Below are positions 5,258 to 26,748 of a stretch of 64,000 nucleotides of DNA, piece by piece. The notes below the pieces were generated by a model. That model was not told where the DNA came from and did not search any database. It saw only the letters and a program-made list of their open reading frames with translations. The number at the start of each line of letters is the position of its first letter. Positions within the stretch are counted from its first letter, which is position 1. Source of the stretch: an uncultured Pseudoxanthomonas sp. (GTDB lineage Bacteria; Pseudomonadota; Gammaproteobacteria; Xanthomonadales; Xanthomonadaceae); contig CBFGMR010000010.1 in NCBI GenBank assembly GCA_965650035.1, positions 2,593-66,592 of the forward strand, read 5' to 3'. The position numbers and the translations under genes were made by a program.

Positions 5258-5836
5258 CTAGTCTTCAAGTATCAGGTACTCGCCTTGCGTTCCGGCCCGC
5301 TTGGGAGTCTTACCTACCTTCACGCAAAGCGCGTTGTCTTTTCCGCACCGGGTCAGACTGCCTGATTGGGTTGCGTGCAGAATGTCGGCGCCAAATTCCG
5401 CTCGCTCCAACTCTCGCATGTTCTTCCAGACGAGGTAACTACTGCCCCCGGCTGCAAGCAGCGAACCTATAGTCAGGGCTATCAGGCCCTTCCAGACGAG
5501 CAGGCTCTGGGTTCGCGCCAAAACCCTGTGTTGCTCCCGCATCATTTCTGCCGACGATTTTGCGCTGGCGGCGCTTTGCTGCAGCTCCGCGTTGAACTGA
5601 TGCACCGCCTGACCAGTGCCCTGCACGACGACATCGTGTGCTTGCTCGCCGACCAATCGTACCGCCTGACCCACGAATTGCTCGACATCAACATTGAATC
5701 GTTGCCTGCCTTGGTCCAACGCGCTCGCACTGCTCTCGATCCGCTGTACCGCTGCGGCGTTTCTTGCGTCCAGCTGATTGGCGATGGCCGCCAACTTGAC
5801 CAGCAACTGCTTGACTTCGTCGAGGTTCGAATCCAT
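5258..5836 (-). CDS. Coiled-coil plus single-TM protein (MobB/'relaxation protein'-like)
   Basis: Long Gln/Ala helical N-terminus, TM LLVWKGLIALTIGSLLAAGGSSYLVW, small C-terminal domain with two Cys; RBS AAGGGA; family call is from memory. Confidence 0.65.
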   Translation of the reverse strand: MDSNLDEVKQLLVKLAAIANQLDARNAAAVQRIESSASALDQGRQRFNVDVEQFVGQAVRLVGEQAHDVVVQGTGQAVHQFNAELQQSAASAKSSAEMMREQHRVLARTQSLLVWKGLIALTIGSLLAAGGSSYLVWKNMRELERAEFGADILHATQSGSLTRCGKDNALCVKVGKTPKRAGTQGEYLILED

Positions 5837-5865
5837 TCGTCTGTCCCTTGCGCTCTTCTAATACG

Positions 5866-7317
5866 TCACATCCGCATGGAATGCGGCTTCTGTGCAGGTG
5901 CCTCCGGCACTTGCTGCGCCAACAGCGGTTGCGCCTCGACCTGTTGCGCCTGTTCGTAGGCTTTGACTTCCTGCTGCCAGGATTGGCCTGCGGCTGAATC
6001 AAGAAACTGGTTGGTCGCCGCTTGCGATTCTTTCAGCGTGACTGCGTTATCAACATGCAGAGTTGCTGCGTAGAGTTGGTCGATGCTGGCGTCGAGCGGG
6101 CGGGGCTTCGATTGGACCTGAGCCGCGGGCCGCTGTTGCGGGTGGTCTACGGGAATCCAGGACTCAATGTCCTGCGGAAGCTTCGGCGTCGGCGCTATCG
6201 GCACGGCACGAAATTCCAGTTGCTCCTCCAACTCGGAATTGATCGGCTGGCGCGTGGCGCAGTCCCGGATCTCGCCCCGCTGGCAGAGCACGGAAGGACC
6301 CAGCTCATTGTGGCGGTCGCGAACGCCGTCGCGGTAACCGAAAGTGGTGTACAGCCCACCCATGTGCTGCTCCGACCGATGAATCACGCTCATGGCAGGA
6401 TCGTCCGGCACCGCCCGCTTCTGCAAGAATGGCTTGTCGCTTAACGCATTCAAATAGTCCACGCCCAGGTTGAAACTGCGGACGCCCAGACCATTGTGCC
6501 GGTAAGTATCGCCGATATCGCTATGGCACCCGGCAACGGTCAAGTTGAGCGACGTCATGCCATCGCTCCAACCCGCCGGAATATGATTGGTGGACTTGAA
6601 CGGATCCCGGGCCTCGTTCTCGGCCGTGATCTGCAGCACCGATACCACCGAAGGCGGCAAGCGTCGGTCGTGCTCTTTCACCCCAGTCGCCACCGGGTCA
6701 TAGAGCAGCACGGCCTGAATTGTTTTGCCCGGCGCCACCAAAGGAGGATTGCTGTACTTGACCTGCGTAACCAGATCCTCGCCATCCCGTACAACTCTGG
6801 CGCCTCGCGGATCCTGGATACCACGCTCCTCAATCATGCGAGCAAGCGCCGCAACCTCCTCCGCACCCCGACTGAAACCGATGCCCGCCACACGGATTTG
6901 TGCCTGGGGGTCTTCATCTATCCACTTTTTGGCTTGCTCACAGAACTGCATATATGCAGTTTCCACGCGCCTCTCAAAGGTAAATCCTGAAAAGCCATCG
7001 ATATTGCGCGTTACCGGGTTGTCTTGAGTAAAAGTACCTTCAACGTAACCCGTGGCGATGTTAGGCGACCCGGATAGCTCGATCTGCTTGTGGATCTTTG
7101 CAACCACGCTCCAGTTCTCTGGTGCGTCGTTCGACATACTGTTTCCAGTGCCGTCCAACGCAGCAACATAAAGTCGCTCATGCGGATTGGCAGCCTTCTG
7201 CAGCACCGGCACCTGCATCTTTCCGATTAATTCTTCAGCCTGCCGGTAACTATTAAGATCACTTTCATTCGCAAGTGGAGCGTCGACTCCATCAGGCTTG
7301 TTGTCTATCGTACCCAT
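5866..7317 (-). CDS. DUF2235 / Tle1-like alpha-beta hydrolase (putative phospholipase effector)
   Basis: ALDGTGN, GFSRG nucleophile elbow, LYDPV, GCHSDIG motifs; no signal peptide; Gln-rich tail ending PHSMRM. Confidence 0.85.
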   Translation of the reverse strand: MGTIDNKPDGVDAPLANESDLNSYRQAEELIGKMQVPVLQKAANPHERLYVAALDGTGNSMSNDAPENWSVVAKIHKQIELSGSPNIATGYVEGTFTQDNPVTRNIDGFSGFTFERRVETAYMQFCEQAKKWIDEDPQAQIRVAGIGFSRGAEEVAALARMIEERGIQDPRGARVVRDGEDLVTQVKYSNPPLVAPGKTIQAVLLYDPVATGVKEHDRRLPPSVVSVLQITAENEARDPFKSTNHIPAGWSDGMTSLNLTVAGCHSDIGDTYRHNGLGVRSFNLGVDYLNALSDKPFLQKRAVPDDPAMSVIHRSEQHMGGLYTTFGYRDGVRDRHNELGPSVLCQRGEIRDCATRQPINSELEEQLEFRAVPIAPTPKLPQDIESWIPVDHPQQRPAAQVQSKPRPLDASIDQLYAATLHVDNAVTLKESQAATNQFLDSAAGQSWQQEVKAYEQAQQVEAQPLLAQQVPEAPAQKPHSMRM

Positions 7318-7334
7318 CCCTAGTACTCCTTAGC

Positions 7335-7946
7335 TCAATAGGTGCGGCTAAACACTTTGATCAAATCATCGCGATAGTCGCTGTGTGGCCTATCGGCAAA
7401 CCTTGGTTCCTTCAAGAAAATCATCGCCCGCATGTAAATGTTGATGGTTCTATCATTGACCTCAAGGATGATTTCCGGGGTGGGGACATAGCTGGTTTCT
7501 GAAATATCCACACGTGCCACGTTGTGGCGAATAAGTTTGTCCTTGAATATCTCTCCAATATCGATTTCGGCCCTAAGAGGCGTGCCGTCCTTGGATTTCC
7601 AAGTAACGACGGCTGGTGGTGGGAAGTTGGGGATGGGACCACGGCCTGCCGTGAGCAGCTTCTCCAAAGGTATTCCATAAGATTCAACGGAAGGCCTGGG
7701 CTCGTCCGATCCATGAGGGAAGCCTCGATACAAAATCTCACAGCTTTGAGTATCGAAACACTGCACCCCGAAATTATGGGCAATAAACCATAGCGGCCAA
7801 TCGGCCACGGTACCCGTATAGGGCCCGTGCCCGGATGGCGGCGTCGTGTTGGTAGATGAAGACATGGCCGATTGGCATCCTGTTGATAACAAGCAAAGCA
7901 GCAGAACGATCGATGCAAGCTGCTGCTCACTGGAAAATATTCTCAT
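7335..7946 (-). CDS. Lipoprotein, putative immunity protein of the downstream DUF2235 effector
   Basis: Lipobox LSTGC; 17 bp upstream of the lipase; start may be 7946 or 7988. Confidence 0.7.
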   Translation of the reverse strand: MRIFSSEQQLASIVLLLCLLSTGCQSAMSSSTNTTPPSGHGPYTGTVADWPLWFIAHNFGVQCFDTQSCEILYRGFPHGSDEPRPSVESYGIPLEKLLTAGRGPIPNFPPPAVVTWKSKDGTPLRAEIDIGEIFKDKLIRHNVARVDISETSYVPTPEIILEVNDRTINIYMRAMIFLKEPRFADRPHSDYRDDLIKVFSRTY

Positions 7947-7994
7947 CTTTGCGTCCTGCACCCGCATCCTAAGACGAACCTGCTTCATCCCGCA

Positions 7995-8813: not shown

Positions 8814-8957
8814 TTTAGGCCATCAGCGGGCGACGTTCAACTCACATTTGCTTCCAACCCGTAAGCCCGGCTGTAGCCAATCAGCGGCTTCGCTCACACT
8901 CATGTTACTGGGCTCACATCTAAAGCAGCTGCTTGCGAAGTCAACCAGAACCTTGCA

Positions 8958-8985
8958 ATAAAAAAGCCCCGCGAGTGCGGGGCTT
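8958..8985 (-). terminator. Rho-independent terminator after the SLT/NlpC effector
   Basis: Stem AAGCCCCGC/GCGGGGCTT with 4-nt loop, followed on the minus strand by a T tract. Confidence 0.85.
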
Positions 8986-9007
8986 CTGTGGTGGGATGGA
9001 ATGGCGA

Positions 9008-10897
9008 TCAGATGCCCATCGTGCGCCGCTGCTCGCTTTCCTGCTGTGCTTGCGGCTGATTCTGCGTTTCCTGCTGCACTTGCGCCGTGCTTTTTTCGAT
9101 CGGCTCGGCGGTGGCCTGTGCCTTGTCCATATAGACACGGCGGTTGGCCGGATCACCGGGTTCGCCTTGCACCAGGAATACGCCGCTGCCGTTGGTGTTG
9201 GGCAGCACATGGTCGATCCGGGTCAGGCCGCTGGCCTTGGCTTCGAACACGCCGGCCGCCGCTGCGTTCTCCAGATCCTGTCGGCTCTTGAACGCCTGCG
9301 GGCCGAGTTGTTCCATGCCCTTGACCGTCTGTTGGAACAGCGCATTGTCCGGATGGCGCGTATCGGAAAGCAGCGGCGCTTCCCGGGATTTCTTCAACGC
9401 TTCCAGAGTCTGGGGTCCGACCAAGCCATCGGCCTTCAAGCCATGGGCTTGCTGGTAAGCCTGCAAGGATTCCTTGGTACGGTCGCCGAAACTGCCGTCT
9501 TCCTTCAGCGGACGGCCTTCCTTGTCGCGATAGCCGTAGCTGTTCAAGGTGTCTTGCAGTTTGCGGATTTCGTCGTTCTTTTCGTCGTGCTTCACCGCAC
9601 CGTCGGCTTGCTGCGGTTGCGGCTTCGTTTGTCCTTGCGTCTGTGTCTGGTGTTGCGTTTGCTGCTTGTCCTGCAGCAGCGTCCGCGCCTCGGCCAGCGG
9701 GTCCGTTGCGTAGAGCTTTACTCCATTGGCCTGCTTTCGCTCCAGGTACCTGTCCAGCGAACTCAATTCCACGCCTTCGCCACCGCGCGACTGGCTGATC
9801 ATCAGCTCGCCGCTCTTGGGATCCTTCACCACCATGGTGATGTGATCGATGCCTTTGTAGCGGCCACCGTCCCACTTGGTGGGGCCGTTGTCCTCGCCGA
9901 TGATCATGCCTTCCTTCAGCACGTCGCGGGTGACCGCCTTGCCTTCGATCATCACCCCAGAGCGCGCTTGCGCTTTATCGACGATCATCGCTGCGCCGTC
10001 GGTACCGGGTTTGAACAGCTCTCCTTTGTCGAACACCACACGACCGGCCTTCGCGTTTATCTCGGCCATCGTCGCATTCTGCATGGTCGTCACCCAGCCC
10101 GAGCAATCCACATAGCCCTGATCCGGGTGCTTGCCGTCGACGCCCGGGTATTTTCCGCTCATGGCGTACTTCACATGATCGTATTTCACGCTCAGGTCGT
10201 GGGCGGCGGTCAGCGCGATTCCTGTTGCCGGGGCAGTCTGCGTAGGCGTGGTCTGCGTCGGTGTGCTCTGAACCGGAGTGCTCTGGCGCGCATCGGTCGT
10301 CGGCTCTATCCCCTTTTCCGGAATGCGTACCCGATCGAACTTCGTATCCCAGTACTGCGTGAACGTCGTCGCCATGTCGCGATCCGACATGGTTCTGAAA
10401 TCGGCGTATTTCTGGCCCGTCACCGCTTCGAAATCGCGGGAACTGACGTTGTTGAGAATCTTGCTGCGCGTATCTTGACGGCCGAACTCGCCTGTAGCGA
10501 TGGCAGTCTGTACGGATCTATAACCCGCCGCGCCCTGCTGGTGCGCCAGGTACATATCCAAACCATCGGGTTCGGGCTTGCCTGACAAGTAGGGGCGACC
10601 ATCGTTCGCATGTCGATTGACCAATGCGTTTCGATTATCCAGGTACAAGCGGGCTGCCGCATCGGTGTTGACCACGGCATCCAATTCACGGCCGCGGATG
10701 CCATATTGATCCGCCGTGTCCGGAACGAACTGGAATAACCCCTTGGCCCCATGTGTCCCACGCGAGACCTGTTCGTCGAACGTACCTCCGGTCTCTATAT
10801 AGGCGAACCGCATGAAATCGTCGCGCGGGATGTTCCTTTCCTGCGCTTCCCGTTCGATGATGTCCAGTACTTCCTTCTTGCTGTAATCCTGCGCCAT
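9008..10897 (-). CDS. T4SS effector: lytic transglycosylase + NlpC/P60-like peptidase + PG-binding + XVIPCD
   Basis: SLT motifs IETGG, GLFQF, YLAHQQG; DCSG...IDHIT; PG-binding DG.FG..T...L.AYQ..HGL.ADG.VGPQT; XVIPCD LSDTRHPDNALF...GVFLVQG; no signal peptide. Confidence 0.88.
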   Translation of the reverse strand: MAQDYSKKEVLDIIEREAQERNIPRDDFMRFAYIETGGTFDEQVSRGTHGAKGLFQFVPDTADQYGIRGRELDAVVNTDAAARLYLDNRNALVNRHANDGRPYLSGKPEPDGLDMYLAHQQGAAGYRSVQTAIATGEFGRQDTRSKILNNVSSRDFEAVTGQKYADFRTMSDRDMATTFTQYWDTKFDRVRIPEKGIEPTTDARQSTPVQSTPTQTTPTQTAPATGIALTAAHDLSVKYDHVKYAMSGKYPGVDGKHPDQGYVDCSGWVTTMQNATMAEINAKAGRVVFDKGELFKPGTDGAAMIVDKAQARSGVMIEGKAVTRDVLKEGMIIGEDNGPTKWDGGRYKGIDHITMVVKDPKSGELMISQSRGGEGVELSSLDRYLERKQANGVKLYATDPLAEARTLLQDKQQTQHQTQTQGQTKPQPQQADGAVKHDEKNDEIRKLQDTLNSYGYRDKEGRPLKEDGSFGDRTKESLQAYQQAHGLKADGLVGPQTLEALKKSREAPLLSDTRHPDNALFQQTVKGMEQLGPQAFKSRQDLENAAAAGVFEAKASGLTRIDHVLPNTNGSGVFLVQGEPGDPANRRVYMDKAQATAEPIEKSTAQVQQETQNQPQAQQESEQRRTMGI

Positions 10898-12684: not shown

Positions 12685-13968
12685 CTAAATCGACATCGAA
12701 CGTCGTTGTTCGCGCTCTTGTTGCTGGGTATGTACTGCAGTCGCTGCCTCTTGCTGCGTCTGCGCTGTACTTTTTTCGATAGGCTCTGCCGCCGCTTGCG
12801 CCTTGTCCAGGTGGACGCGATGATGGGCGGGATCGTTGGGTGCGCCCTGCACTGCGAACAGACCTGTGCCGTTAGTGCTCTGCAGGACATGATCGATCCG
12901 CGTCAGACCGCTGGCCTTGGCTTCGAACACCGTCGCGCCTGCTGCGTTCTCCAGTTCCTGTCGATTCTTGAATGCTTGGGGGCCAAGTTGTTCCAGGCCT
13001 TTGACTGCCTGTTGGAACAACGCGCTGTCCGGATGGCGCGGATCGGAAAGAAGAGGGGCGGCTTGTGATTTCTTCAGCGCTTCCAAAGTCTGCGGACCCA
13101 CTACGCCATCGGCCTTCAGTCCGTGCGCTTTCTGATAGGCCTGCACCGCTTCCTTGGTGCGGTCACCAAAGCCACCATCCTCACGTAGCGCGCGGCCGTC
13201 CTTGTCGTGGTAGCCGTAGTTGTTCAGGGTGTCTTGTAGCTTGCGGATATCTTCACTTTTTTCGCCATGCTTTAACATCCCATCGGACATAGAGCCGGGC
13301 TGCGTCGATGGGTTCTTCGTCTGGTTGCTATGTTGCGCATCTTTCACAACGGTCAAGTCGTTTGCCAATGCAACCAAATCAGCTTTCTCGTTCTTGGCTC
13401 GCTCCAACAACCCTGGCCAGAGGCTGGGCGATTTACTAAACAGCTGACTGTTGTGAGCGATTTTGTAGTCCTGCACAGCTTCAACAATATCCTTGTCGGA
13501 CAGCTGGGACAGCTCGTAATTCTTTCCGAACTTTTCCTCTAACCCTTTTGAGAAAATGCCCGGCGTCAGATTTCTGAATTGAACCGAGGTGCTCCACAGC
13601 GCGTCCTGCACTGCTGGGCCTCGACCGGAAAGATCCAGTCCCCTGGCGGTCAATTTGTCGTTTTGGATATCGAAATGAGTAGCTTTGATGAATTCATGCT
13701 GGTCTTTGGCGAAACCAGGATCAGTTTTTGCAAGATCGCGCCATTTGGCATCGAACGCAGGAGTTGCGGGGGTTAGATCTTTGAACTGGTCCTTGTAGGG
13801 CGACTGATCCAAATATTCTTGCAACGTCCCCATTTTTGTGGAGAGCTGATAGGAACCATAGGAAACCCCGCCGCGGTCACCTCTTCCTGTAGAGATCGTC
13901 GCCGCCCCACGACCACCGGTTTCATACTTGGTTGAAGTCTGACCAAGATTCCAATCTTCGTTCGCCAT
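12685..13968 (-). CDS. T4SS effector: VgrG3-like muramidase domain + PG-binding + XVIPCD
   Basis: TSTKYETGGRGAATISTGRGDRGGVSYGSYQL resembles the VgrG3 C-terminal lysozyme-like domain; PG-binding and XVIPCD (LSDPRHPDSALF...GLFAVQG); GGAGG RBS before ATG 13968. Confidence 0.85.
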   Translation of the reverse strand: MANEDWNLGQTSTKYETGGRGAATISTGRGDRGGVSYGSYQLSTKMGTLQEYLDQSPYKDQFKDLTPATPAFDAKWRDLAKTDPGFAKDQHEFIKATHFDIQNDKLTARGLDLSGRGPAVQDALWSTSVQFRNLTPGIFSKGLEEKFGKNYELSQLSDKDIVEAVQDYKIAHNSQLFSKSPSLWPGLLERAKNEKADLVALANDLTVVKDAQHSNQTKNPSTQPGSMSDGMLKHGEKSEDIRKLQDTLNNYGYHDKDGRALREDGGFGDRTKEAVQAYQKAHGLKADGVVGPQTLEALKKSQAAPLLSDPRHPDSALFQQAVKGLEQLGPQAFKNRQELENAAGATVFEAKASGLTRIDHVLQSTNGTGLFAVQGAPNDPAHHRVHLDKAQAAAEPIEKSTAQTQQEAATAVHTQQQEREQRRSMSI

Positions 13969-14037
13969 CGCCACGTCCTCCATTACATGTCAATAAAGTC
14001 GCAAATCACGTGCTCTTTCTGAGCATAGCGCCAGCAG

Positions 14038-16076: not shown

Positions 16077-17228
16077 CTAAGAACTCGCGTCACTATTCTT
16101 GCTAGGGCCTTGAGCTGCCAATCCACGCTGCCCGACGGAGCCCTCTACTTGGGCTTGGCCAGCAATTCTTGGGCCAGAATTTGGCGTGTATGACGCAGTA
16201 GATGTCTGCGTTGTTGGCTGAGGCGGTGGCAGGTAACCGGGCTGACCAGGCTGTCTGCCGGATACATCGCGCATTCCACCCCCAGTCGCACCACCACTCA
16301 TACCAAATACCGATCCAGGCATGAAATGCCCCATCGTCCCCTGGAAGAACGCAGCCGCCATCGGCGGCGCACTGATGATCAGCATGGTGAGAATCAAACC
16401 CAGGCCGCCCTGCTGCATCGCGCGGCTGGTAATGCCCTCGGTGCCTGCACCGCCCATCAGGTCGCCCACCAGATCGCCGGCCCAGAACGAACCTGCAACT
16501 GCGATCACCATATCCATGGCCAGCGTCACCATCACACTCAATACCGCCAACGAGAACATCGTGCCGATGCCGTAGTAGAGCCACTTGCCGAACAACTGCT
16601 TGGTCTGCTCGAACAGCAGGCAGAGGATGAACAACGGCCCCAGGCCCACGAACAGCGCCATGGCGATCTTGTTCAGCAACAGCATGGTGCCGGCGGTGAC
16701 TGCCGGTCCGCCCGCGCCGATGCCGGTGAACCACATGGCCCGGTCTTTCTTGTCGTTGAGGATTTCGTCCCCGCCGACATCCAGCGAATCGATGCTGGTG
16801 AGCGCGATCTGCATCAGCGCCAGGCTTCTGTCGATACTGTCGTAAGGATCGTCGTCCTCGCCGGTAACGGTCTGGGTGATCACCGAACTCAAGCCTTCGG
16901 TCAACGTGTTGTAGATCGAAGTCGAACCGGCCGCCGCCCCAATGGCGATACCCACGATCAGCGAAGCGCGCAGCGAATTGGTGACCAGCGCCATCATCGA
17001 GTCGCGCGACTGCCCGGTCACGATGCGGTAACCCTGGATCAGCACCCAGATAGTCAAAAGAGAGAGGGCGGCAAACCCAAGGATGCCTGCCGTTCGCTCC
17101 AGCAGGTTGCCCATGAACTCGCCGATTTCATCGCGCAAGAATTCGTTGATCTGCTGGAAGAAGACCATGTTGCTGGCTTCTGTCCCGAGACCCTGCGCTT
17201 TCTGCACCCCTGCCAACAGATCTTGCAT
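16077..17228 (-). CDS. virB6: T4SS inner-membrane protein VirB6
   Basis: Polytopic; KIAMALFVGLGPLFILCLLFEQTKQLFGKW motif; low-complexity C-tail; start uncertain (17168-17267). Confidence 0.9.
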   Translation of the reverse strand: MQDLLAGVQKAQGLGTEASNMVFFQQINEFLRDEIGEFMGNLLERTAGILGFAALSLLTIWVLIQGYRIVTGQSRDSMMALVTNSLRASLIVGIAIGAAAGSTSIYNTLTEGLSSVITQTVTGEDDDPYDSIDRSLALMQIALTSIDSLDVGGDEILNDKKDRAMWFTGIGAGGPAVTAGTMLLLNKIAMALFVGLGPLFILCLLFEQTKQLFGKWLYYGIGTMFSLAVLSVMVTLAMDMVIAVAGSFWAGDLVGDLMGGAGTEGITSRAMQQGGLGLILTMLIISAPPMAAAFFQGTMGHFMPGSVFGMSGGATGGGMRDVSGRQPGQPGYLPPPQPTTQTSTASYTPNSGPRIAGQAQVEGSVGQRGLAAQGPSKNSDASS

Positions 17229-17350
17229 CGTGCCCACTGTATTGCCCCTATAGATTCCGTCCCACACACAGGCAGATATCTGCCTGCGGTTCCAACAATA
17301 CCCAGTCCAACCGACTTTTCATCTCGCATTTCGTTATTGCCGGAACGCCA

Positions 17351-17378
17351 GACAGCCCGCAATACGATGCGGGCTGTC
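17351..17378. other. GC-rich hairpin between virB5 and virB6
   Basis: Perfect 11-bp stem GACAGCCCGCA/TGCGGGCTGTC, 6-nt loop, no clear U tract. Confidence 0.6.
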
Positions 17379-17402
17379 CGGTCTTACATAAACGCAGATG
17401 CT

Positions 17403-18179
17403 TTAACGATCACGTTTGCGGGCGACATCAAGCGCCAGGCCCAAGCTTGCGCCACGTACCAGACCCGCCACCAGAGTGCCGTCCTTTTTGCGGCCTTCCA
17501 AGGCCTCGTCCGTACTTCTGGCTTGTTCTTGCTGCAAGGAAACAACTACGCTTTGATAGGCATCCAGCGTGGTTTTCGCATTCTGCATATCCAGCTGTGT
17601 GCGAGCCTGGAGAGATGCGATCTTGTTGGTGTTGTCCTGCAGCCTGCCGGGCTCGTCCTTTCTGATGCCTGCGCGCTCGGCGTAGATCGCCTCCAGCTCC
17701 TTGGTGCGCTTTTCTTCCAGTTCAAGCACATCGACCAACTGGTTGTACTGGTCGTTCTGGTAACGGACGATGCTCTTGCAGATGGCACGTTGACCTGGGA
17801 CGGGTGCCTTCTTCACTTCCGGGCAAGCGCTCTCCTCATTCAAATGACGGTCGCGCCGCGCCGGCAGTTCCGCCTTCTTCCCGGGCTTGCCGTTGTAGCC
17901 GCCGGTAGCGCCGATCTGAAGCTGACGCATCTGCTCAAGCTGTGCGTCGTACTGCTCCTTCAGCTTGTCGTACTGCTCCTTCAACTTCGTGAGCTGGTCC
18001 ACCTGCTCGCTGTAGTCGGCCAGCCAGCCCAACTTCGTCAAGAGCGTATGCGGTAGATCCACCACCGGCATTGCACTGGCCGCGCCGACCGCCAGTCCGC
18101 AGCCAAGCACCAGCCCGCTGGCGAAGTTGACGTACCTGGATTTCGCTTGCTTGGAACCTGCTGCTTTCTTCACGTTCAT
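17403..18179 (-). CDS. virB5: T4SS minor pilin VirB5 (Xanthomonadales type)
   Basis: Position between virB4 and virB6; signal then MPVVD; coiled coil; Cys pair. Confidence 0.8.
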   Translation of the reverse strand: MNVKKAAGSKQAKSRYVNFASGLVLGCGLAVGAASAMPVVDLPHTLLTKLGWLADYSEQVDQLTKLKEQYDKLKEQYDAQLEQMRQLQIGATGGYNGKPGKKAELPARRDRHLNEESACPEVKKAPVPGQRAICKSIVRYQNDQYNQLVDVLELEEKRTKELEAIYAERAGIRKDEPGRLQDNTNKIASLQARTQLDMQNAKTTLDAYQSVVVSLQQEQARSTDEALEGRKKDGTLVAGLVRGASLGLALDVARKRDR

Positions 18180-18289
18180 TCCTCACCTCCGTTATGAGCT
18201 GGTACCACCCTGACAATTACACCCCGGCCTGAACCGGGCCGTACAACCTGTTCGACAACCTCGTCACGATCCATATGCACCACCTGTTC

Positions 18290-20758
18290 TCATGCCTTGG
18301 CCATGCCGGTACGCGCGCCCGACCCTGACGGCTTGCCGCCACCCTTTCCTGAACCCTTACGCTGGGCGTAGAACTCGCTGAGCCATTGCTCGGGGCGCAA
18401 TTCGTTGGACAGGACGCCCTGGCTCCGCGCCTGCTCCTCCAGCACTTCATGCATGATCTCGATGTTGTCGGTGGATGCCGAAATCACCGCCAGCGCATCG
18501 TCCATTCCACGCAAATTGAGCTGGCAGACGCTGGACGCATGGCCCTGCTTGACCAGGAAGCAGCGCGAGCGTTCGTCCAGGCTGACCACGACCTGGTATT
18601 CGGCCTCGGTCAGCTTCAGACCGTTGATGTAGTCGTCGCGGCTGGCATTGGGATTGGGCAGCAGGATCATGGTTGCGGTCTGCTCGATCAGCGCCGCGGC
18701 GATGTCGCTGGCCAGCGCGTCTTCCGGGCTCTGGGTCGCGAAGATGCCCAGACCGTTCTGTTTACGGATGGTCTTCTGCTTGTTCTTGGCGAACTCCTTG
18801 AGCCCGCCCTTGCCGTCGAGGATCTTCCAGAATTCGTCCATCACGTAGATCAGGCGACGGCCGTCGATCAGCGCTTCAAGACGGTGCAGCAGATAGTTGA
18901 TGACCGGCACACGCACTTCGGGATTGTCGATGATGTCGGTGTAGTCGAAGCCGATGATGTTGGCTTTCTGCAGATCGATGGTGTCCACCGGGTTGTCGAA
19001 GACCCAACCATGCGAATTGCCCGCGGTCCACTTGCGCATGCGGGCGAACAGCCCGTCGTCGCCCATGTTGGGCAGGCTCTTCTGGAAATTGGTCATGCTG
19101 CGCAGGTGCATGGGAGTGTCGAGCATGTTCTCGACCGCGCGGAAGATGTCTTCTTCTTCGCGCGAGGTGTAGCTGGCCTTCCCACCCAGCACCTTCATCA
19201 GGTCGGCCAGGAACTGCGTATTGGCATCGTTGCGCTCGCACTGGAACGGATTGAAACCGGTAGGCCGGCCGTTCTCCAGCGCCAGATAATTGCCGCCGCA
19301 GGCGCGCACGAAGATTTCGGCGCCGCGGTCCTTGTCGAAGAAGAAAATGGTCGGGGCGGGATCCAGTTTCTGGACCTGGCTGAGCAGGAAGTTGATCAGC
19401 GCGGTCTTGCCGGTACCGGACTTGCCGATGACCATGGTATTGGCGATGGCCTTCTCGCCCAACGAGTTCTCCGCCGGATGGGTGGCGTGGAAATTGAAGT
19501 AGTAGGGCTGTCCGTTGGTGGTCTGCAGCGTGGTGACGCACTCGCCCCAGGGATTGTTTTCCTTCTTGCCGGACGCGAAGTTGTGCAACGGCGACAGGCC
19601 GAGGAAGTTGAGCGAGCTGATATTGGCCAGGCGGGTGCGGTTCTTCCAGTTGCCCGGAATCTGCGAATAGAACGAGGACGCTACCGCCAGGTCTTCCTTG
19701 GTGGAGACGAATCCGGCATTGGAAAGTTCCGCGCGCGCGGTGGCGGTGTTCTGCGAGAGCTTTTCCTGGGAATCGGCGTACAGCGCCAAAGTGAAGTGAT
19801 ACTCGCCCAGCACGAAGTTGCCCGAAGCCAGCTGATCCATCGCATGGTCCAGCTCCACGATCTGGCTGACCGCCTTGTCGCCGGAAGAAATCATCATGCC
19901 CTTGGTGCGGTCCAGCACCTTGAGCGCATCCTGGCGGCCGATCGGACTGAAGGAGTGGGTTATCACATAATCGAAGTCCAGGTACTTCAGTCCATTGAGA
20001 ATGCCCGGATAGGTACCGTCGGTGTATTCCTTGATATTGAGGATGGCGCCGAAATGATTGACGCCATTGGGCGTGTTGATGATGAAGTCGCCGGTCTTGT
20101 CAGAGAACATGTGCCGGCTGACCGGCAAATAGCCGTTCACCGGCGCGCTGAGCACCGGCACCGGCTCGTCGATGCGGTTCAGCAGATAGCCGAAGAATTC
20201 CAAAGCCTCGGAGAACACCACCCCGTTGCTGGCTTCGTACATGCCCAACCGGTAGGGCGAATAATCCTTGAGCACGGCTTCCAGATTGCCCGCCAGCTCC
20301 TGGATCTTGGCGATGGCCTGATCCTGTTCGGACTGCAGCTGGGCGATGTTGGTGGATTTTTCCACCAGCCGCTTACCCGTCACCACCGGCCGGTAGATCA
20401 TGGTCAGGTACAGCTCGTTCTGCATGATCTTCTGCGAGGACAGCGACTCGAAGTAAGCGTCCGACATGTCCTGATTGAAGGCCTGCCCGAACTTGCTGCG
20501 GTCGTTGATGCGCCGCTTGCGGCGCACGTCATGCACCCAGAACGCCAGGTTGGCGAAGTCCGGTGCGCGCAGGGTCTGCAGCATGCGGTTGAAGGTGTTG
20601 TGCCGGTGCTCGATCTCCCACTCGTCCCGGCCGACGAAAGGCAGCCCGCCCAGATGCCACACCAGCAGGTAATCGCCACCGGTGGTCTTGATCACCGAGG
20701 GCGATACGTGGGTGGAGAGCGGGATGAATTCGCTGATGGAGGTGTCGGGTGTGAACAT
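18290..20758 (-). CDS. virB4: T4SS ATPase VirB4
   Basis: 822 aa; Walker A GKSGTGKT, FDKDRG, Walker B YVMDEFW, RKQNG...ATQSP. Confidence 0.97.
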   Translation of the reverse strand: MFTPDTSISEFIPLSTHVSPSVIKTTGGDYLLVWHLGGLPFVGRDEWEIEHRHNTFNRMLQTLRAPDFANLAFWVHDVRRKRRINDRSKFGQAFNQDMSDAYFESLSSQKIMQNELYLTMIYRPVVTGKRLVEKSTNIAQLQSEQDQAIAKIQELAGNLEAVLKDYSPYRLGMYEASNGVVFSEALEFFGYLLNRIDEPVPVLSAPVNGYLPVSRHMFSDKTGDFIINTPNGVNHFGAILNIKEYTDGTYPGILNGLKYLDFDYVITHSFSPIGRQDALKVLDRTKGMMISSGDKAVSQIVELDHAMDQLASGNFVLGEYHFTLALYADSQEKLSQNTATARAELSNAGFVSTKEDLAVASSFYSQIPGNWKNRTRLANISSLNFLGLSPLHNFASGKKENNPWGECVTTLQTTNGQPYYFNFHATHPAENSLGEKAIANTMVIGKSGTGKTALINFLLSQVQKLDPAPTIFFFDKDRGAEIFVRACGGNYLALENGRPTGFNPFQCERNDANTQFLADLMKVLGGKASYTSREEEDIFRAVENMLDTPMHLRSMTNFQKSLPNMGDDGLFARMRKWTAGNSHGWVFDNPVDTIDLQKANIIGFDYTDIIDNPEVRVPVINYLLHRLEALIDGRRLIYVMDEFWKILDGKGGLKEFAKNKQKTIRKQNGLGIFATQSPEDALASDIAAALIEQTATMILLPNPNASRDDYINGLKLTEAEYQVVVSLDERSRCFLVKQGHASSVCQLNLRGMDDALAVISASTDNIEIMHEVLEEQARSQGVLSNELRPEQWLSEFYAQRKGSGKGGGKPSGSGARTGMAKA

Positions 20759-20827
20759 ACGTTAGCGGATCATGTGTCAGTGGATCTCGAAATTACGGGA
20801 GCACTCGGAAAAAATGGACTGCCAAGC

Positions 20828-21136
20828 CTAGCGGTCCTTCGCAGGCTTGGCACGGTAGCTGTTGGGCGAGAACACCCACATTCCCGAGTGATGCTTCAGG
20901 TTCCTGGCCTTGAACTTGAACTGCAGCCGCAAGCCCAGCATGCGGAAGATCATCTCGTCCCGCCTGGCCATCTGTCGCATGACGAAGATGACCGGTGGCA
21001 ACAGCATCAAACAGAACATGTTGATGTAGAAGGTCAGCAGGATGCACGTCCCGGCCGCGAGGAAGAACGGCATGTAGGGCACGCCCATGAACATGGCCGG
21101 GCGCGTGCAGCCCCTGAACAACACATTCTTATGCAT
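20828..21136 (-). CDS. virB3: T4SS protein VirB3
   Basis: LFRGCTRPAMFMGVP motif, two TM segments, overlaps virB2 stop. Confidence 0.92.
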   Translation of the reverse strand: MHKNVLFRGCTRPAMFMGVPYMPFFLAAGTCILLTFYINMFCLMLLPPVIFVMRQMARRDEMIFRMLGLRLQFKFKARNLKHHSGMWVFSPNSYRAKPAKDR

Positions 21137-21521
21137 AGAACATGAGGGCGTTGATCAGCATGCCGCCGGCCGGTGCTCCACCTTCTTCAAGCGTGTTGTC
21201 GCCCAGCAGCATTCTTGCGATCTGGGCCGCGGCGCCGATCAGAAAGCCGCCGATCAACACCGGCGCCACATCGGAAATTCGCTTGTGGGCGAAGGCGATC
21301 TGATAGCCCGCGAATATCACCGCGATGGTGACCACGGCGATCGAGGCGATGTTGAGCAGCGAATTGAGGTTTCCGAAGAACTCCTCGACTCTATCGGTCG
21401 CCTCCTGCGCCATGGCCATGCCCGGCATCGCCAGGACGGCGACGAACACCACTGCCATGAGCATCGGCGAGAGGATTTTCTTGGCCTGATCGCTGGAGGC
21501 CTTTGGGAATACGGGTTTCAT
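21129..21521 (-). CDS. virB2: T4SS major pilin VirB2
   Basis: TrbC/VirB2 pattern (IAVVTIAVIFAGYQIAF...VLIGGFLIGAA); AAGGAG 9 nt before ATG 21521. Confidence 0.9.
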   Translation of the reverse strand: MKPVFPKASSDQAKKILSPMLMAVVFVAVLAMPGMAMAQEATDRVEEFFGNLNSLLNIASIAVVTIAVIFAGYQIAFAHKRISDVAPVLIGGFLIGAAAQIARMLLGDNTLEEGGAPAGGMLINALMFYA

Positions 21522-21596
21522 TCGTGTCATCTCCTTGGGTTGATTGCTAAACAAAAACAAGCGGCGGGGGTATCCATGATTCCGCTATTGGGAACG

Positions 21597-22385
21597 CTAG
21601 AAAACGAATGCCGCATCGACCGCGGGCAATTCCGCTGCGGTCGTCTGGGAGACGGCAGGGCCGTCCGCGGCGACAGATACTTGGGCCGGTTGCGCACCGG
21701 CCTGCATGCTTTGCAGAACTATGGGCTGCTCCTGCGGAGTGGCCGATACGCGCATCAGGGCGGCCTGCGACGCGTCCGGCACCGCGATGGGCTGGGGCGC
21801 AATCTGGCGCGCAGGTGGGGCTGCGGCCGTCGCGGGAGCCTGGGCGGGCGCAGCGTATACGGGATAGCGGGTCACCCCGATCGTGCGCCGCGACGGCTTG
21901 CTGACCACGGGAATGGCCTGGCCCTGCGGTGCGCTGGCCGAGCCCGGCGCGGTCTGGCGCATCGAAGCGTAGATCTTCTGCACATAGCCGTGGCGATAGC
22001 CGGTAACGAAGTTGCCGGAGTAGTAGCAACTGAACGATTTTCCCCAGTCGCCGCCCGAGCGACCGTAGCACTCGGCCAGAATGCGCGAGCCCGCTTGCAG
22101 GTTGGGGCAGACCTCGAAAGCCTTCTCATAGGAGTTGAGGCCGTACTTGCCCAGGTTGTAGCGATTCACCTGGGCTACGCCCAGCGAGAAATTGAAACCG
22201 CGGCTCTCCAGCATGCGTACGGTGGCGAGCGCTTCCGGCAGGTTCTTCGGCTGCCGCACCAAGTGCCCGCCGACCACGCCGATGGCATACCGGTTGTGCG
22301 AGGATTCTACGCGCACGACGTGATGCATCACCTCCGGCGGAACCGCCAGTTCGGGGCAACTCATTAGCTCCATGCCAGGTAACAC
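21597..22385 (-). CDS. virB1: T4SS lytic transglycosylase VirB1
   Basis: VRVESSHN, SLGVAQVN, SCYYSG motifs; GGAGG RBS before GTG. Confidence 0.92.
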   Translation of the reverse strand: MLPGMELMSCPELAVPPEVMHHVVRVESSHNRYAIGVVGGHLVRQPKNLPEALATVRMLESRGFNFSLGVAQVNRYNLGKYGLNSYEKAFEVCPNLQAGSRILAECYGRSGGDWGKSFSCYYSGNFVTGYRHGYVQKIYASMRQTAPGSASAPQGQAIPVVSKPSRRTIGVTRYPVYAAPAQAPATAAAPPARQIAPQPIAVPDASQAALMRVSATPQEQPIVLQSMQAGAQPAQVSVAADGPAVSQTTAAELPAVDAAFVF

Positions 22386-22687
22386 CGCGTACTCCTCCGT
22401 TACACGCTTATCGCTATCCGACGATCATTCGACAAAGCATGTGGAGTTCCACAGCCTTTCGAGTTCATTGCCGATATCCCTGCGCCCATATTTCATGAGC
22501 ACCCTAGTGTTGTCAACTTAATGCAGCCGCAAAATTCTGTAGGAAAAAGATTACATATCTACTTGTTGTGTGCCTGCTCTCACCATAAAGGCGTCTGCTA
22601 TCGGTAGCATTTTCTGTTTCAGGAAAAAAATGCCAACCCAGGTAACCAATCGGCTAGAATTTAGAGACGGCGGACACATTTTTGGCG

Positions 22688-23725
22688 TTACTCGGCGAAC
22701 GTTCTCTCCGGATTGAAGTCGATGCCCGTGATGTTGCGCTGGCCCGCGTGAGCCTTGATGTGCACCAGGATGTCGATGGTCATCATGAGCAGGCGCTTGA
22801 TGATGGCGAACTCCAACCCGGCGCCTTCCGCGGAGGCTTTCACCATCAACGCCAGCTGGTCCCAGGTCTGGGTGGTGCTGCCGGCATGGCAGCTGGTGAT
22901 GGAGCCCGGATGGCCCGAGGCGCAGTTGCGTATGAAGTAGAAGGATTCGTCGCCGCGCAGCTCGGCCAGGATTATGCGGTCCGGCTTCATGCGCAGGCAG
23001 GCTTCCATGCAGCTCTTGGCGGTGACGTTGCTGGTGCTCTGCCCTCCCTTGGAATAGAGCAGGTGCACCGCATTGGGCTGGGTGATGAACAGTTCGCGCG
23101 CGTCTTCGATGGTGACCAGGCGCTCATCGGCGGGGATATGGTTGACCAGCGATTTCATGAAGGTGGTCTTGCCGCTGCCGGTGGCGCCGGAAACCACTAT
23201 GTTCTTCTTGTATAGAACCGCTTTCTTGAAGAACTCGGCGTAGTTGCGCGAATACTTCAGCTCCAGCAGTTCCCGGTCGTGCTCGCCCAGCGTGTGGCCC
23301 TGCTCCAGGATCTGGTCGAAGAAACCGTCTTCCTGGTATTGCTGCAGCGATTTGGTGTGCTTGGACGGCAGGCGGATGGTGATGGAAACCTTGCCGGCGT
23401 CGCAGGCGGGCGGAATCACGAACTGCGCGCGCTGGCCGGTGGGAAAGGTCAGCGATACGACCGGATCGGTGTCGGTGATGCGCTGGCCGGTATTGCTTTC
23501 ATTGACCACGGCGGTGCAGAACTGCCGGGCGCGTTCGAAATTCAGGCCCGGCACCTCGATGCGCTGCCAACCTTGCCGGGTTTCCAGATAGATTTCTCCC
23601 GGCTTGTTGATGCAGATTTCGGTGACCTCCGGGGAGCTCATGTACTCCAGGATTCCCAGCACTTCGTACTGGTAGTCCAGGAATTGGCTGGAGACCCGCG
23701 CTACCGGTGAGTTGTCGATGTCCAT
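22688..23725 (-). CDS. virB11: T4SS ATPase VirB11
   Basis: Walker A GATGSGKT, TIEDAREL, LRMKPDRIILAELRG, GHPGSITSCH. Confidence 0.97.
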   Translation of the reverse strand: MDIDNSPVARVSSQFLDYQYEVLGILEYMSSPEVTEICINKPGEIYLETRQGWQRIEVPGLNFERARQFCTAVVNESNTGQRITDTDPVVSLTFPTGQRAQFVIPPACDAGKVSITIRLPSKHTKSLQQYQEDGFFDQILEQGHTLGEHDRELLELKYSRNYAEFFKKAVLYKKNIVVSGATGSGKTTFMKSLVNHIPADERLVTIEDARELFITQPNAVHLLYSKGGQSTSNVTAKSCMEACLRMKPDRIILAELRGDESFYFIRNCASGHPGSITSCHAGSTTQTWDQLALMVKASAEGAGLEFAIIKRLLMMTIDILVHIKAHAGQRNITGIDFNPERTFAE

Positions 23726-23740
23726 GGCATAAGGCCCGCG

Positions 23741-25003
23741 TCAGTTGCGGGCCAGTACCCCGGTGAAGTCCACGTCCTTGGAAACGTAAACGTTGACTAC
23801 CGTGCCCTGGTTGATGGTGACCGTGGGCGGACGGTTGATGCTCTTGTCCAGCGCCTGGTTGGCCAGACGTTCCATGGTCCGCGCGGTGCTGCTTTCGAAA
23901 GGAGTCTCCAGCACGTTTCCGTTGGAGATGGTGGTGGTACGGGGACCGTTTTCGGCGGCCGCGTAGCTGAAGGCGTCGCTGATCAGGCTGATCATCAGCG
24001 CCGATGCGATGCGGCTGCCCCAGTGCGCGTTGTATTTGCCCGGATGGCCGGCACCGCCAAGATTGTCCACGCCGGGGCTGGCCATGTTGACGTCGATGCC
24101 GTTGGGAGTGGTGATGCGGTCCCAGATCACAGCGACCCGCGGCCCCGTGGCGCCGGCATTGTTGTATTTGCCGGAAATCTTGGAGCCCTTCGGCAGCAGC
24201 AGGCTGCGGCCGTTGATCGAGTAGACCGGCTCGGTGACCACGCACGAGGTGAAGCCAGGTATGTCGGTGACGATGCGGGTTTCAAGCACGCAACGGATGT
24301 AGGTGCCGCGAACCAGCAGGGCATCGGGCCGGTAGATGTATTGCGCCGAAGCGACCTCGTCCTGCGGGGGCGGTTGCGCGGCCGCCGGGTTGCCCGTCAT
24401 GCCGGCAGCCATCATGGCTTGCATATAGGCATCCTTCTTCGCGGCATCGCTGCCGCCTTCACCGCCGCCACTGCCTGCGCCGGCGCCGTTCATCATCCTG
24501 CGCTCCATCAAGGTCGGCTCGCGCGGCTGCGATTGCGCTCCGTATCCGTCCGATGGGTAAGCGCTGGGCTGTGCGGGCTCGGGCGGCAGCGGAGGCATCG
24601 CCGGTTCGGCGGCGTACTGTTCCATCGGGATCGGCGCGACCGGCTCGGCGCTTTGCGGCTCTGCGTTGCCGGGCAATTCGGGGATCACCACTTTTTCTTC
24701 CCGCGGCTTGGCGACTTCGTCCTTGCCGGAGGTAGCGCTCTTGAACATCCATACCGCAGCGACGATCAGCAGCAGGACGATGCCCCCCAGGAACAGCAAT
24801 GCCTTGCGGTTGAGCTTCTGCAGATCGTTGGACCGCAGCTGCGGGGCGTTCGCGTCGAGATCAGGCGCGGCGCTGCTTTGCTGGTTGGCGTAATAGGGAT
24901 TGCCGGCTTGCGCGGGCGCCTCCGTATCGCGATTGGGCTGCGGATCCGGATCGCCGTCGTCGTAAGGGCGGCCGGAGGAATTGGGCGGCAAATTCTGGTT
25001 CAT
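23741..25003 (-). CDS. virB10: T4SS core-complex protein VirB10
   Basis: TM, Pro-rich linker, LLVRGTYIRCVLET, LGGAG, TVTINQG TrbI motifs. Confidence 0.95.
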   Translation of the reverse strand: MNQNLPPNSSGRPYDDGDPDPQPNRDTEAPAQAGNPYYANQQSSAAPDLDANAPQLRSNDLQKLNRKALLFLGGIVLLLIVAAVWMFKSATSGKDEVAKPREEKVVIPELPGNAEPQSAEPVAPIPMEQYAAEPAMPPLPPEPAQPSAYPSDGYGAQSQPREPTLMERRMMNGAGAGSGGGEGGSDAAKKDAYMQAMMAAGMTGNPAAAQPPPQDEVASAQYIYRPDALLVRGTYIRCVLETRIVTDIPGFTSCVVTEPVYSINGRSLLLPKGSKISGKYNNAGATGPRVAVIWDRITTPNGIDVNMASPGVDNLGGAGHPGKYNAHWGSRIASALMISLISDAFSYAAAENGPRTTTISNGNVLETPFESSTARTMERLANQALDKSINRPPTVTINQGTVVNVYVSKDVDFTGVLARN

Positions 25004-26690: not shown

Positions 26691-26748
26691 CAATTTGATT
26701 CCTCGAAGCCGCTATGTGAACACCGATGCGAAAACATTCCGGCCATGC

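Follow-up and report, generated by a model that had tools for sequence, protein, structure and literature searches.

A Tle1-like lipase encoded beside an X-T4SS carries a non-XVIPCD three-helix tail linked to its own membrane-protein gene, a candidate recruitment partner

Within the window, i.e., the whole stretch of 64,000 nucleotides that was analyzed, three minus-strand open reading frames form a compact unit with gaps of 17 and 29 bp between the genes (Table 1). They encode a putative immunity lipoprotein (P0001), a lipase (P0002), and a protein with a coiled coil and a single transmembrane (TM) segment (P0003; 5258-5836). The first-pass annotation had described this tight trio and placed it at the distal end of a T4SS effector array, and both statements were borne out: along the minus strand, the virB block is followed by two effectors with a PF20410 XVIPCD and then by the trio. 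In the virB block, Pfam matches were obtained for VirB8, CagX/VirB9, TrbI/VirB10, T2SSE/VirB11, SLT/VirB1, TrbC/VirB2, VirB3, CagE/VirB4, and TrbL/VirB6. VirB5 and VirB7 in the window were assigned by position only, and a Pfam search of the candidate VirB7 for the N0 domain gave no match. The one VirD4 of the window's genome lies outside the VirB block and spans the junction between the end of contig C7 and the start of contig C41. With four PF20410 effectors found by Pfam, the genome offers the background typical of effectors of the bacteria-killing, Xanthomonadales-like T4SS (X-Tfes), namely a chromosomal X-T4SS, VirD4, and other XVIPCD effectors. A promoter and terminator scan performed no better than chance level.

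Table 1. Positions of the features in the window, with the evidence for each.
Feature	Position	Strand	Evidence
P0003 C-terminal beta mini-domain, about 55 aa, Cys164/Cys171, predicted periplasmic, plus stop codon	5258..5428	-	alignment, AF2
P0003 single TM segment, residues 117-136, GLIALTIGSLLAAGGSSYLV	5429..5488	-	conserved hydrophobicity, alignment A2
P0003 N-terminal helical/coiled-coil region, residues 1-116, predicted cytoplasmic	5489..5836	-	AF2, charge bias
Lipase effector P0002, 483 aa, whole gene	5866..7317	-	ORF, PF09994
P0002 residues 462-483, Gln-rich and disordered, with the C-terminal end ...AQKPHSMRM	5869..5934	-	AF2, composition
P0002 three-helix module, residues about 407-461	5935..6099	-	AF2, alignment consensus
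P0002 Tle1/DUF2235-like phospholipase domain, residues 1-385	6163..7317	-	PF09994, catalytic residues
Putative immunity lipoprotein P0001, 217 aa, 5' of lipase	7335..7988	-	translation, homologue context
Neighboring canonical X-Tfe, 629 aa, PG_binding_1 + XVIPCD	9008..10897	-	PF20410 E=3.6e-29
Neighboring canonical X-Tfe, 432 aa, VgrG3-like_C + PG_binding_1 + XVIPCD	12685..13983	-	PF21277 E=5.9e-72, PF20410 E=8.1e-31
X-T4SS genes virB7(?)-B8-B9-B10-B11-B1-B2-B3-B4-B5(?)-B6	16077..27151	-	Pfam

The lipase P0002 matched PF09994 (T6SS_Tle1-like_cat) with E=8.5e-14 and 52 bits (cut-off 27) over model positions 4-131 of 287, and it combines this catalytic domain with the GxSxG nucleophile motif of the Tle1/DUF2235 family. 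As had been read from the sequence, the motif GFSRG is intact (residues 147-151) and a signal peptide is missing, with no hydrophobic signal at the N-terminus. Over 90% of the 115 homologues compared retain the residues G147, S149, and G151 as well as D207 and H265. With the T6SS effectors of the Tle1/DUF2235 type and their Tli lipoproteins, the locus shares PF09994, GxSxG, a lipoprotein gene for immunity, and a presumed target in the periplasm. However, the T6SS sheath gene TssC (PF05943) was not found in the 99.8%-complete genome, no VgrG, PAAR, or adaptor genes lie beside the lipase, and P0002 has a T4SS-style tail instead. Secretion by a T6SS, which the first-pass annotation had named as an outcome that would speak against its T4SS proposal, therefore does not apply to a genome without the sheath gene.

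The lipoprotein P0001 carries a lipobox-type sequence (LLSTG↓C) in its signal peptide, and no family was assigned to it in Pfam, NCBIfam, or PDB-sequence searches. Its homologues share the motif NFPPPA.V.W.SKDGTPL.AE.D..EIFKD...ILEVNDRTINVYMRA...DLIK.FSRTY and precede lipase homologues in eight loci (L007, L008, L009, L013, L015, L016, L020, and L024), where they are at times duplicated, with and without lipobox.

Rather than an XVIPCD, P0002 has at its C-terminus a modular domain of a separate kind. In the HMM search that had been proposed for it, PF20410 gave no match to the tail even at E<=10 and matched none of 42 family tails, and an hhalign comparison of the tail alignment with 27 XVIPCDs yielded a probability of 4.3%, with just the last 9 columns aligned. 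The AF2 model of an 88-aa fragment, calculated with a 42-sequence tail alignment, contained helices at fragment residues 12-25, 29-45, and 47-66 (block-mean pLDDT 87-96 across residues 31-60), so that the tail is predicted to be all-alpha, whereas the XVIPCD is alpha-alpha-beta-beta-beta. The earlier statement that the tail lacks an XVIPCD core thus held. The three-helix module follows the consensus D..h[DE]RL..AA...DD.A......YL.SP.GQ.W; Pfam, NCBIfam, and PDB-sequence searches returned no family for the tail, and a Foldseek search of the model against the PDB gave no meaningful fold match. The Gln-rich stretch follows the three helices and is disordered, with low pLDDT and without secondary structure in the AF2 model.

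At its extreme end (...QQVPEAPAQKPHSMRM), P0002 shows the features of X-Tfes, that is, a Gln-rich tail with an Arg/hydrophobic/small, acid-free terminus. The likeness in terminal style to the two neighboring X-Tfes was confirmed, with ...QKPHSMRM in P0002 and ...RRSMSI and ...RRTMGI in the neighbors. Among the family tails, R or K was present in the last 8 residues in 85 of 92 and Met in the last 6 residues in 76 of 92, and D or E occurred among the last 6 residues in just 4 of 92. In X-Tfes, the last ~6 residues, which are Arg/hydrophobic/small and acid-free, are needed for translocation (PMC8740702).

A profile search with the tail retrieved 204 representative protein clusters (E<=1e-3). The tail is restricted to the C-termini of antibacterial toxin-type proteins: among the 147 best clusters, it ends within 12 residues of the C-terminus in 136, and only 26 contain a Tle1-like domain. 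The other N-terminal domains were Lipase_3, PG_binding_1, Zeta_toxin, the DUF6782 metallopeptidase, and unknown domains. X-Tfes have the same repertoire of N-terminal domains, and DUF2235 is already known among them (PMC6536674). In two hybrid effectors (L059 and L060), the helical module stands in tandem with a canonical XVIPCD. The GatB/YqeY-like protein L021 had been picked up falsely by the tail profile and was discarded, and L022 is a marginal match at best.

The third protein of the unit, P0003, comprises 192 aa with two long predicted helices, one TM segment, and a small Cys-containing beta domain. Its AF2 model, which is of low confidence (pLDDT 65.6), shows helices at residues 3-69 and 74-157 and four short strands in the C-terminal domain. 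Across 28 homologues, the net charge of the TM flanks is about +2.9 on the N-terminal side vs about 0 on the C-terminal side, a bias from which we infer a bitopic protein with a cytoplasmic N-terminus and a periplasmic beta domain. Conservation among the homologues is highest in this domain, which reads AEFG.DIL.AT.SG.LTRCG...LCVKVG..P.R.G..GEYLLL, with L161, C164, L170, and C171 invariant. No family was found for P0003 in Pfam, NCBIfam, or PDB-sequence searches; a Foldseek search of the model against the PDB gave nothing meaningful either, which is weak evidence because of the low model confidence. PF28006 is annotated on some P0003 homologues, and no mention of it was found in the literature.

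The resemblance of P0003 to MobB-type relaxation proteins of plasmids, suggested in the first-pass annotation, did not survive. A tblastn search of 72,556 plasmids in PLSDB gave no match at E<=0.01, and with no match on plasmids the idea was rejected. All of the approximately 60 homologues are named hypothetical and none MobB or relaxation protein. Five chromosomal loci (L007, L009, L056, L057, and L058) were free of relaxase families and of an oriT context; in these, the partner gene was always located 3' of the toxin gene. At most, plasmid MobB-type accessory proteins are a loose analogy, as small membrane-associated helpers of T4SS substrates.

The linkage of the P0003 gene to the tail holds across unrelated toxin domains. 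A partner homologue is located directly downstream of 15 out of 17 clear tails, at a ratio of one partner to one tail, and these tails include those of the non-lipase effectors L014, L017, L018, L019, L023, and L056. The partner gene also follows both hybrids. The partner thus goes with the helical module and not with the lipase, as would be expected if it were dedicated to that module. Downstream of canonical XVIPCD effectors in the examined genomes, no partner gene was found. Two tail-bearing lipases have no partner gene nearby, L008 with an intact tail and L020 with a Gln-rich part that looks decayed, and one partner homologue (L065) has no effector upstream. Since the hybrids keep the XVIPCD together with module and partner, the partner is not simply a substitute for VirD4-AAD recognition, and the three-helix module may be an add-on domain for partner binding rather than a strictly alternative signal. 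The proposal of an alternative or minimal translocation signal is hence retained in part: the tail is a module of its own, different from the XVIPCD, that keeps the Gln-rich/Arg-Met end, but the hybrids call the word alternative, taken strictly, into question.

A homologue of the partner was present in 15 of 301 sampled genomes of the order (about 5%) and also in some Burkholderiales. With XVIPCD presence as a proxy for the X-T4SS, 14 of the 15 partner genomes (p=3e-13) and 8 of 10 tail genomes (p=1e-6) were positive, compared with 38 of 301 genomes of the order overall, and at the genus level the figures were 10/10 vs 16/87 (p=2e-9). Tail and partner divergence were correlated (Mantel r=0.72, p=2e-4), although this correlation is confounded by phylogeny; since the module is found for the most part within a single order, shared ancestry inflates the co-occurrence and Mantel statistics alike. 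The single partner genome without a PF20410 match was G291, and a Variovorax genome (G301) has the trio as well as 4 XVIPCD matches. Occurrence mostly in genomes without an X-T4SS, which the first-pass annotation had named as an outcome against its proposal, did not apply within the order, where the module was found mainly in XVIPCD-positive genomes. In a class-level sample, none of about 400 other genomes contained the partner and the window's own genome was the sole carrier, so that this sample adds nothing on co-occurrence outside the order.

Compared with described X-Tfes (PF20410; Souza 2015, Oka 2022), P0002 is alike in its N-terminal antibacterial domain (DUF2235, Lipase_3, PG hydrolases, and zeta toxin in X-Tfes), in its C-terminal delivery region with Gln-rich disorder and an acid-free end of Arg, Met, and small residues, in the adjacent immunity gene, and in the X-T4SS of its genome. 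The differences are that X-Tfes have a folded core that binds the all-alpha domain of VirD4 where P0002 has the three-helix module, and that the P0002 gene is followed by a cognate membrane-protein gene. No such partner gene was found in the X-Tfe literature consulted, nor was an earlier description of the tail module with its partner. The BID domain of Bartonella also is a helical bundle with a positively charged tail, but it has four helices and ~100 aa compared with the three short helices of P0002, no homology or Foldseek match was detected, and it serves another subtype of secretion system than the X-T4SS.

T4SS chaperones and adaptors such as Helicobacter pylori CagF for CagA, Agrobacterium tumefaciens VirE1 for VirE2, and Legionella IcmS/IcmW/LvgA on DotL are small cognate proteins that are encoded next to or with their substrate, bind near its C-terminal signal, and aid recruitment to the coupling protein. 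P0003 would follow the same concept, but no similarity in sequence or fold was found in Pfam, NCBIfam, PDB-sequence, and Foldseek searches. Unlike these chaperones, P0003 appears to be a bitopic membrane protein with a predicted periplasmic Cys-pair domain, and there is one paralogue per effector.

Taken together, a tail module with its own membrane-protein gene points to an undescribed effector-recruitment partner. We regard it as moderately probable that the unit is an X-T4SS effector cassette in which the partner is an effector-specific membrane adaptor or chaperone engaging the three-helix module. The cassette would encode a periplasmic lipoprotein immunity protein, a Tle1-like phospholipase effector made in the cytoplasm, and a cognate bitopic inner-membrane partner. 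The cytoplasmic coiled-coil domain of the partner would bind the three-helix module of the effector encoded with it, and its membrane anchor and its Cys-pair mini-domain in the periplasm would position both proteins at the inner membrane, next to VirD4 and the VirB channel. The C-terminal tail of the effector would then engage the machine, with the partner serving as effector-specific adaptor or chaperone. More tentatively, and with somewhat less confidence than would make it probable, we propose a second, adaptor-dependent recruitment route of the X-T4SS, in which bitopic partners recognize three-helix modules by their cytoplasmic coiled coil, also employ the periplasmic Cys-pair domain, and hand effectors to VirD4 or the VirB channel, so that the XVIPCD core would be dispensable.

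The Gln-rich/Arg-Met end alone, or the helical module acting directly on VirD4, might also suffice, in which case the partner would have another module-tied job than recruitment, e.g., keeping the effector anchored or silent at the inner membrane and so preventing cis-intoxication, or stabilizing it. This is unlikely but deserves serious consideration, as the hybrids retain a full XVIPCD next to the helical module and partner, the intact tail of L008 has no partner gene nearby, and protection from cis-intoxication is a known issue for X-Tfes (PMC6536674; PMC10933484). Against this reading, the upstream genes already provide dedicated immunity proteins, for some of which cytosolic paralogues exist. 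Moreover, the partner tracks the tail module over unrelated toxin activities and therefore cannot directly inhibit their different active sites. That module and partner form a pair acting in the target cell, or a toxin and its antidote (e.g., a membrane-active tail neutralized by the partner), is distinctly improbable. One-to-one, adjacent, and co-diverging genes do resemble a toxin-immunity organization, and the partner is a membrane protein, but the module, with a structured part of just ~55 residues, lacks hydrophobic character and precedes a secretion-type disordered tail. In the hybrids it stands upstream of the XVIPCD like a delivery-related domain, and separate toxin domains and immunity genes exist.

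A highly divergent XVIPCD with ordinary VirD4 recognition and an unrelated downstream gene would account for the Gln-rich stretch and terminal style common to both tail types. Yet this very improbable reading is already contradicted by the PF20410 and hhalign results, the all-alpha predicted fold, the tandem of both domains in L059 and L060, and the linkage of the downstream gene to the module. That P0002 is a Tle1 effector of the T6SS type, or belongs to an orphan toxin-immunity module, and lies next to the T4SS by coincidence is hardly credible. PF09994 is named for T6SS Tle1 and trios elsewhere are dispersed and distant from T4SS genes, but canonical X-Tfes are dispersed too and are known to bear DUF2235 domains, the genome lacks TssC and the lipase any VgrG, PAAR, or adaptor neighbor, and the enrichment in XVIPCD-positive genomes is strong.

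In the literature consulted, X-T4SS effector repertoires are predicted by XVIPCD searches, and a 2019 review expected further recognition signals beyond the XVIPCD (PMC6536674). The three-helix module and the Gln/Arg-Met tail, together with their cognate membrane partner, constitute a candidate for such a signal that is defined by sequence. Its carriers, which comprise lipases, cell-wall hydrolases, zeta toxins, and proteins with unknown domains, escape XVIPCD searches, and the resulting profiles allow the annotation of several hundred unannotated proteins. If an effector-specific membrane adaptor indeed recruits them, effector sets based on XVIPCD HMMs would be systematically incomplete. This opens the questions of how a T4SS coupling protein accepts substrates without the known recognition domain, and whether minimized T4SSs employ membrane-anchored, effector-specific adaptors.

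The lipase gene under study, encoding the Tle1/DUF2235 effector P0002, forms a compact trio with those of a putative immunity lipoprotein (P0001) and a downstream coiled-coil/TM partner (P0003), with intergenic gaps of 17 and 29 bp. In P0002, GFSRG occupies residues 147-151, and Ser149, Asp207 and His265 fall in alignment columns that are more than 90% conserved across 115 homologues. The trio is the final element of an X-T4SS island with the gene order virB8-B9-B10-B11-B1-B2-B3-B4-(B5)-B6, followed by two canonical XVIPCD effector genes. Between window positions 5000 and 28000, the G+C content of the island is 0.49-0.61 (lipase trio 0.51-0.60) against approximately 0.65 in the flanks, consistent with horizontal acquisition of the T4SS/effector island. 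An additional 272-aa ORF next to the trio could encode a second immunity or accessory protein. No T6SS sheath gene is present in the window's genome, which is 99.8% complete. The first-pass annotation had thus described the trio, its coordinates and its place at the island end correctly in all checkable details.

Features of the island, of related loci and of tail effectors with an immediately downstream partner gene
Feature	Position	Strand	Description
P0001	window 7335-7988	minus	217 aa; signal peptide ending in lipobox-type LLSTG|C
P0002	window 5866-7317	minus	483 aa; Tle1-like catalytic domain PF09994 (E=8.5e-14); without signal peptide
P0003	window 5258-5836	minus	192 aa
XVIPCD effector	window 12685-13983		canonical; after virB genes
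XVIPCD effector	window 9008-10897		canonical, 629 aa; after virB genes
ORF, 272 aa	window 7995-8813	minus	hydrophobic N-terminal segment; no family match; between 629-aa effector and trio
Lipase_3-like effector	G000 (window's genome) C7:131889-133424	minus	512 aa; adjoins virD4 at C7-end/C41-start junction; outside window
P0330	L055 711-1754		chimeric ORF; metagenome contig Ga0679453_0014910
Immunity gene duplication	L007:8711-9964		5' of lipase homologue
Immunity gene duplication	L009:8758-9984		5' of lipase homologue
L014			tail effector, 276 aa, domain without known identity
L017			Lipase_3-like tail effector
L018			848-aa tail effector
L019			HExxH tail protein; partner divergent, recognised by eye
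L023	G120:C107 ~8281-9273	minus	tail effector
L056			PG_binding_1 tail protein, 630 aa
L005 (window), L007, L009, L013, L015, L016, L024, L057, L058			tail-bearing lipases

The C-terminal tail of P0002 had been described as lacking the XVIPCD core motifs, and the profile searches bear this out. PF20410, the XVIPCD family, did not match the tail even at E<=10, nor any member of a diverse set of 42 tails from the lipase family. Against the window's genome translated in six frames it matched at least four proteins, all other than P0002. This count is a minimum, since PF20410 did not report the 512-aa effector beside virD4, which by eye carries a divergent XVIPCD (HPDYALY...VDLATPPP...Gln-rich...GISMALG). 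The virD4 gene itself lies outside the island and is interrupted between two contigs; as the contig ends overlap, this is an assembly break only. A profile-profile comparison of the tails with 27 XVIPCDs from the window's genome and related genomes gave a probability of 4.3%, with an alignment confined to the last nine residues. AlphaFold2 on the tail alignment predicted three helices followed by approximately 20 disordered residues (block-mean pLDDT 87-96 over fragment residues 31-60), and Foldseek found no PDB match for this model. The XVIPCD fold differs from this: it is alpha-alpha-beta-beta-beta and binds VirD4's all-alpha domain (AAD) (PMC8740702). The P0002 tail and X-T4SS effectors (X-Tfes) agree in their Gln-rich stretch and at the very C-terminal end. 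At X-Tfe positions -6 to -1, Oka et al. reported Arg, no acidic residues and more Met, Pro, Leu and small residues; these positions are essential for translocation and dispensable for VirD4-AAD binding (PMC8740702). Of 92 complete tails, 85 have R/K within the last eight residues, 76 have Met within the last six (commonest ending MRM), and only four have D/E there.

The tail is found on many antibacterial toxins. Variants of it, and never PF20410, occur in every lipase homologue of 460-500 aa; these homologues belong to Pseudoxanthomonas, Lysobacter, Luteimonas, Vulcaniibacterium, Variovorax and Noviherbaspirillum. A HMMER search of 1.84 billion representatives with the tail profile returned 204 proteins at E<=1e-3 (53 at E<=1e-10). 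Among the best 147 of these, which are approximately 200 to 750 aa long, the match ends within 12 residues of the C-terminus in 136, and only 26 have a Tle1-like domain. The other N-terminal domains on tail proteins include Lipase_3, PG_binding_1 with hydrolase-like regions, Zeta_toxin and a DUF6782 metallopeptidase, besides several recurrent ones without identification; this repertoire is that catalogued for X-Tfes (PMC6536674).

Co-occurrence was assessed in 301 genomes spread evenly over the order, with PF20410 as a proxy for the X-T4SS. The per-genome search scored limited candidates, so genome counts are minima, and the statistics treat genomes as independent of phylogeny. At least 38 of the 301 genomes encode PF20410 effectors. 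The tail (E<=1e-5) occurred in at least ten genomes, eight of them XVIPCD-positive (Fisher p=1.2e-6, kinship ignored), and the partner (E<1e-7) in at least 15, of which 14 were positive (p=3e-13, kinship ignored). At genus level, partner genera were XVIPCD-positive in 10/10 cases vs 16/87 (p=2e-9). A Variovorax genome with the trio likewise has four XVIPCD matches, and beyond the order the partner is rare, being found in none of approximately 400 other class-level genomes. One of the two tail genomes without XVIPCD was a false positive. In the other, G220, neither an XVIPCD match nor a partner gene was found; its lipase (L020, G220:C10) keeps the helical module while the Gln-rich part and typical terminus are gone (...RGWLQEDATQRMPAVLEPQR), and its delivery tail may have decayed after T4SS loss. 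Trios are mostly scattered among housekeeping genes, as canonical X-Tfe genes are (PMC6536674). Among the sampled genera, the two with the most XVIPCD effectors (g3, and g9 with nine matches per genome) had no genome with the partner, which may explain why it has been overlooked so far, if model genera are among them.

The partner gene lies directly 3' of the tail effector in 15 of 17 clear tails (see table), across effectors whose toxin domains are unrelated; it was not found there at L008 (Vulcaniibacterium) and L020. Further tail/partner pairs (L061-L064 and L066) have weaker tail scores. The ratio is 1:1, with one of each in the window's genome and, in G120, two tail effectors that each have their own partner gene. 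Most telling are two hybrid effectors, L060 (761 aa) and L059 (888 aa), in which a canonical XVIPCD comes right after the three-helix module; a partner gene follows each. Ordinary XVIPCD effectors in the genomes examined have no partner; G142, for example, encodes eight of these and a single partner, beside its one tail. Thus, it is with the helical module, and not with the lipase, that the partner co-occurs. Effectors with different toxins, e.g., L017 and L024, have common tail and partner subtypes. Across 24 pairs, sequence divergence of the tail is correlated with that of the partner (Mantel r=0.72, p=2e-4), a correlation to which shared ancestry contributes. At L023, the tail effector (...SRGPVMVM) and partner share one 1340-aa open frame with no intervening stop; natural fusion, loss of the stop codon or a mistake in the 310-contig draft could each account for this.

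P0003 has no family match in Pfam or NCBIfam, and its approximately 60 homologues are all annotated as hypothetical. In this family the N-terminal half is helical, there is a single TM segment, and the strongly conserved C-terminal part (approximately 55 residues) contains Cys164 and Cys171, both invariant. The net charge flanking the TM segment (+2.9 on the N-side, approximately 0 on the C-side) fits an N-in/C-out orientation by the positive-inside rule, and the coiled coil is therefore predicted to be cytoplasmic and the Cys pair periplasmic. A low-confidence AlphaFold2 model (pLDDT 65.6) consists of a pair of long helices and a mini-domain with four strands, without a PDB match. PF28006.1 appears in the precomputed annotation of about one third of the homologues (P0131, P0132, P0142 and others), not of P0003 itself; a DUF-type family for this protein may already exist in a newer version of Pfam. 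The earlier likening of P0003 to plasmid MobB 'relaxation proteins' is not supported, as no plasmid match, no homologue so named and no relaxase context were found; at most, a distant parallel in function is left.

Two further observations concern the neighboring genes. P0330 combines a VirB8 (residues 1-223; 88% identical to that of the window) in one reading frame with a P0003 homologue, of which it has residues 68-192 (74% identical). Behind it come DDAH, response-regulator and kinase genes, in agreement with the left flank of the window. Barring a chimeric assembly of this contig, the whole ~20-kb T4SS/effector island between virB8 and the partner gene thus seems to have been lost in a relative. 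The duplicated immunity genes, a lipoprotein copy adjoining one without signal peptide at L009 and two copies joined in one 417-aa ORF at L007, recall the cytosolic X-Tfi (immunity protein) variants discussed for protection from cis-intoxication.

Taken together, the tail is very probably a distinct modular delivery-associated domain tied to X-T4SS genomes, with the partner functionally linked to its helical module. In the best-supported reading, the trio would be an X-T4SS effector cassette: the three-helix module of P0002 would take the place of the VirD4-AAD-binding core and be recognised by its cognate membrane-anchored partner, and P0002 would retain a generic C-terminal translocation tail. 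The role of P0003 as a recruitment adaptor or chaperone is predicted from sequence with slightly better than even confidence. The chief alternative gives the partner a role in tethering, stabilising or silencing the effector instead of recruiting it; the hybrids L059 and L060 are compatible with this.

Module and partner did not come up in full-text searches of the literature on XVIPCD, DUF2235 and T4SS effectors or in the key papers. 'Atypical T4Es' are T4E homologues without XVIPCD that were found by BLASTP and assayed for toxicity and a role in defence, and that work describes neither an alternative tail nor a partner gene (PMC10989847). Further recognition signals were predicted in a 2019 review (PMC6536674). 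While the secretion system that they would serve is already known, the putative recognition module and its partner are new.
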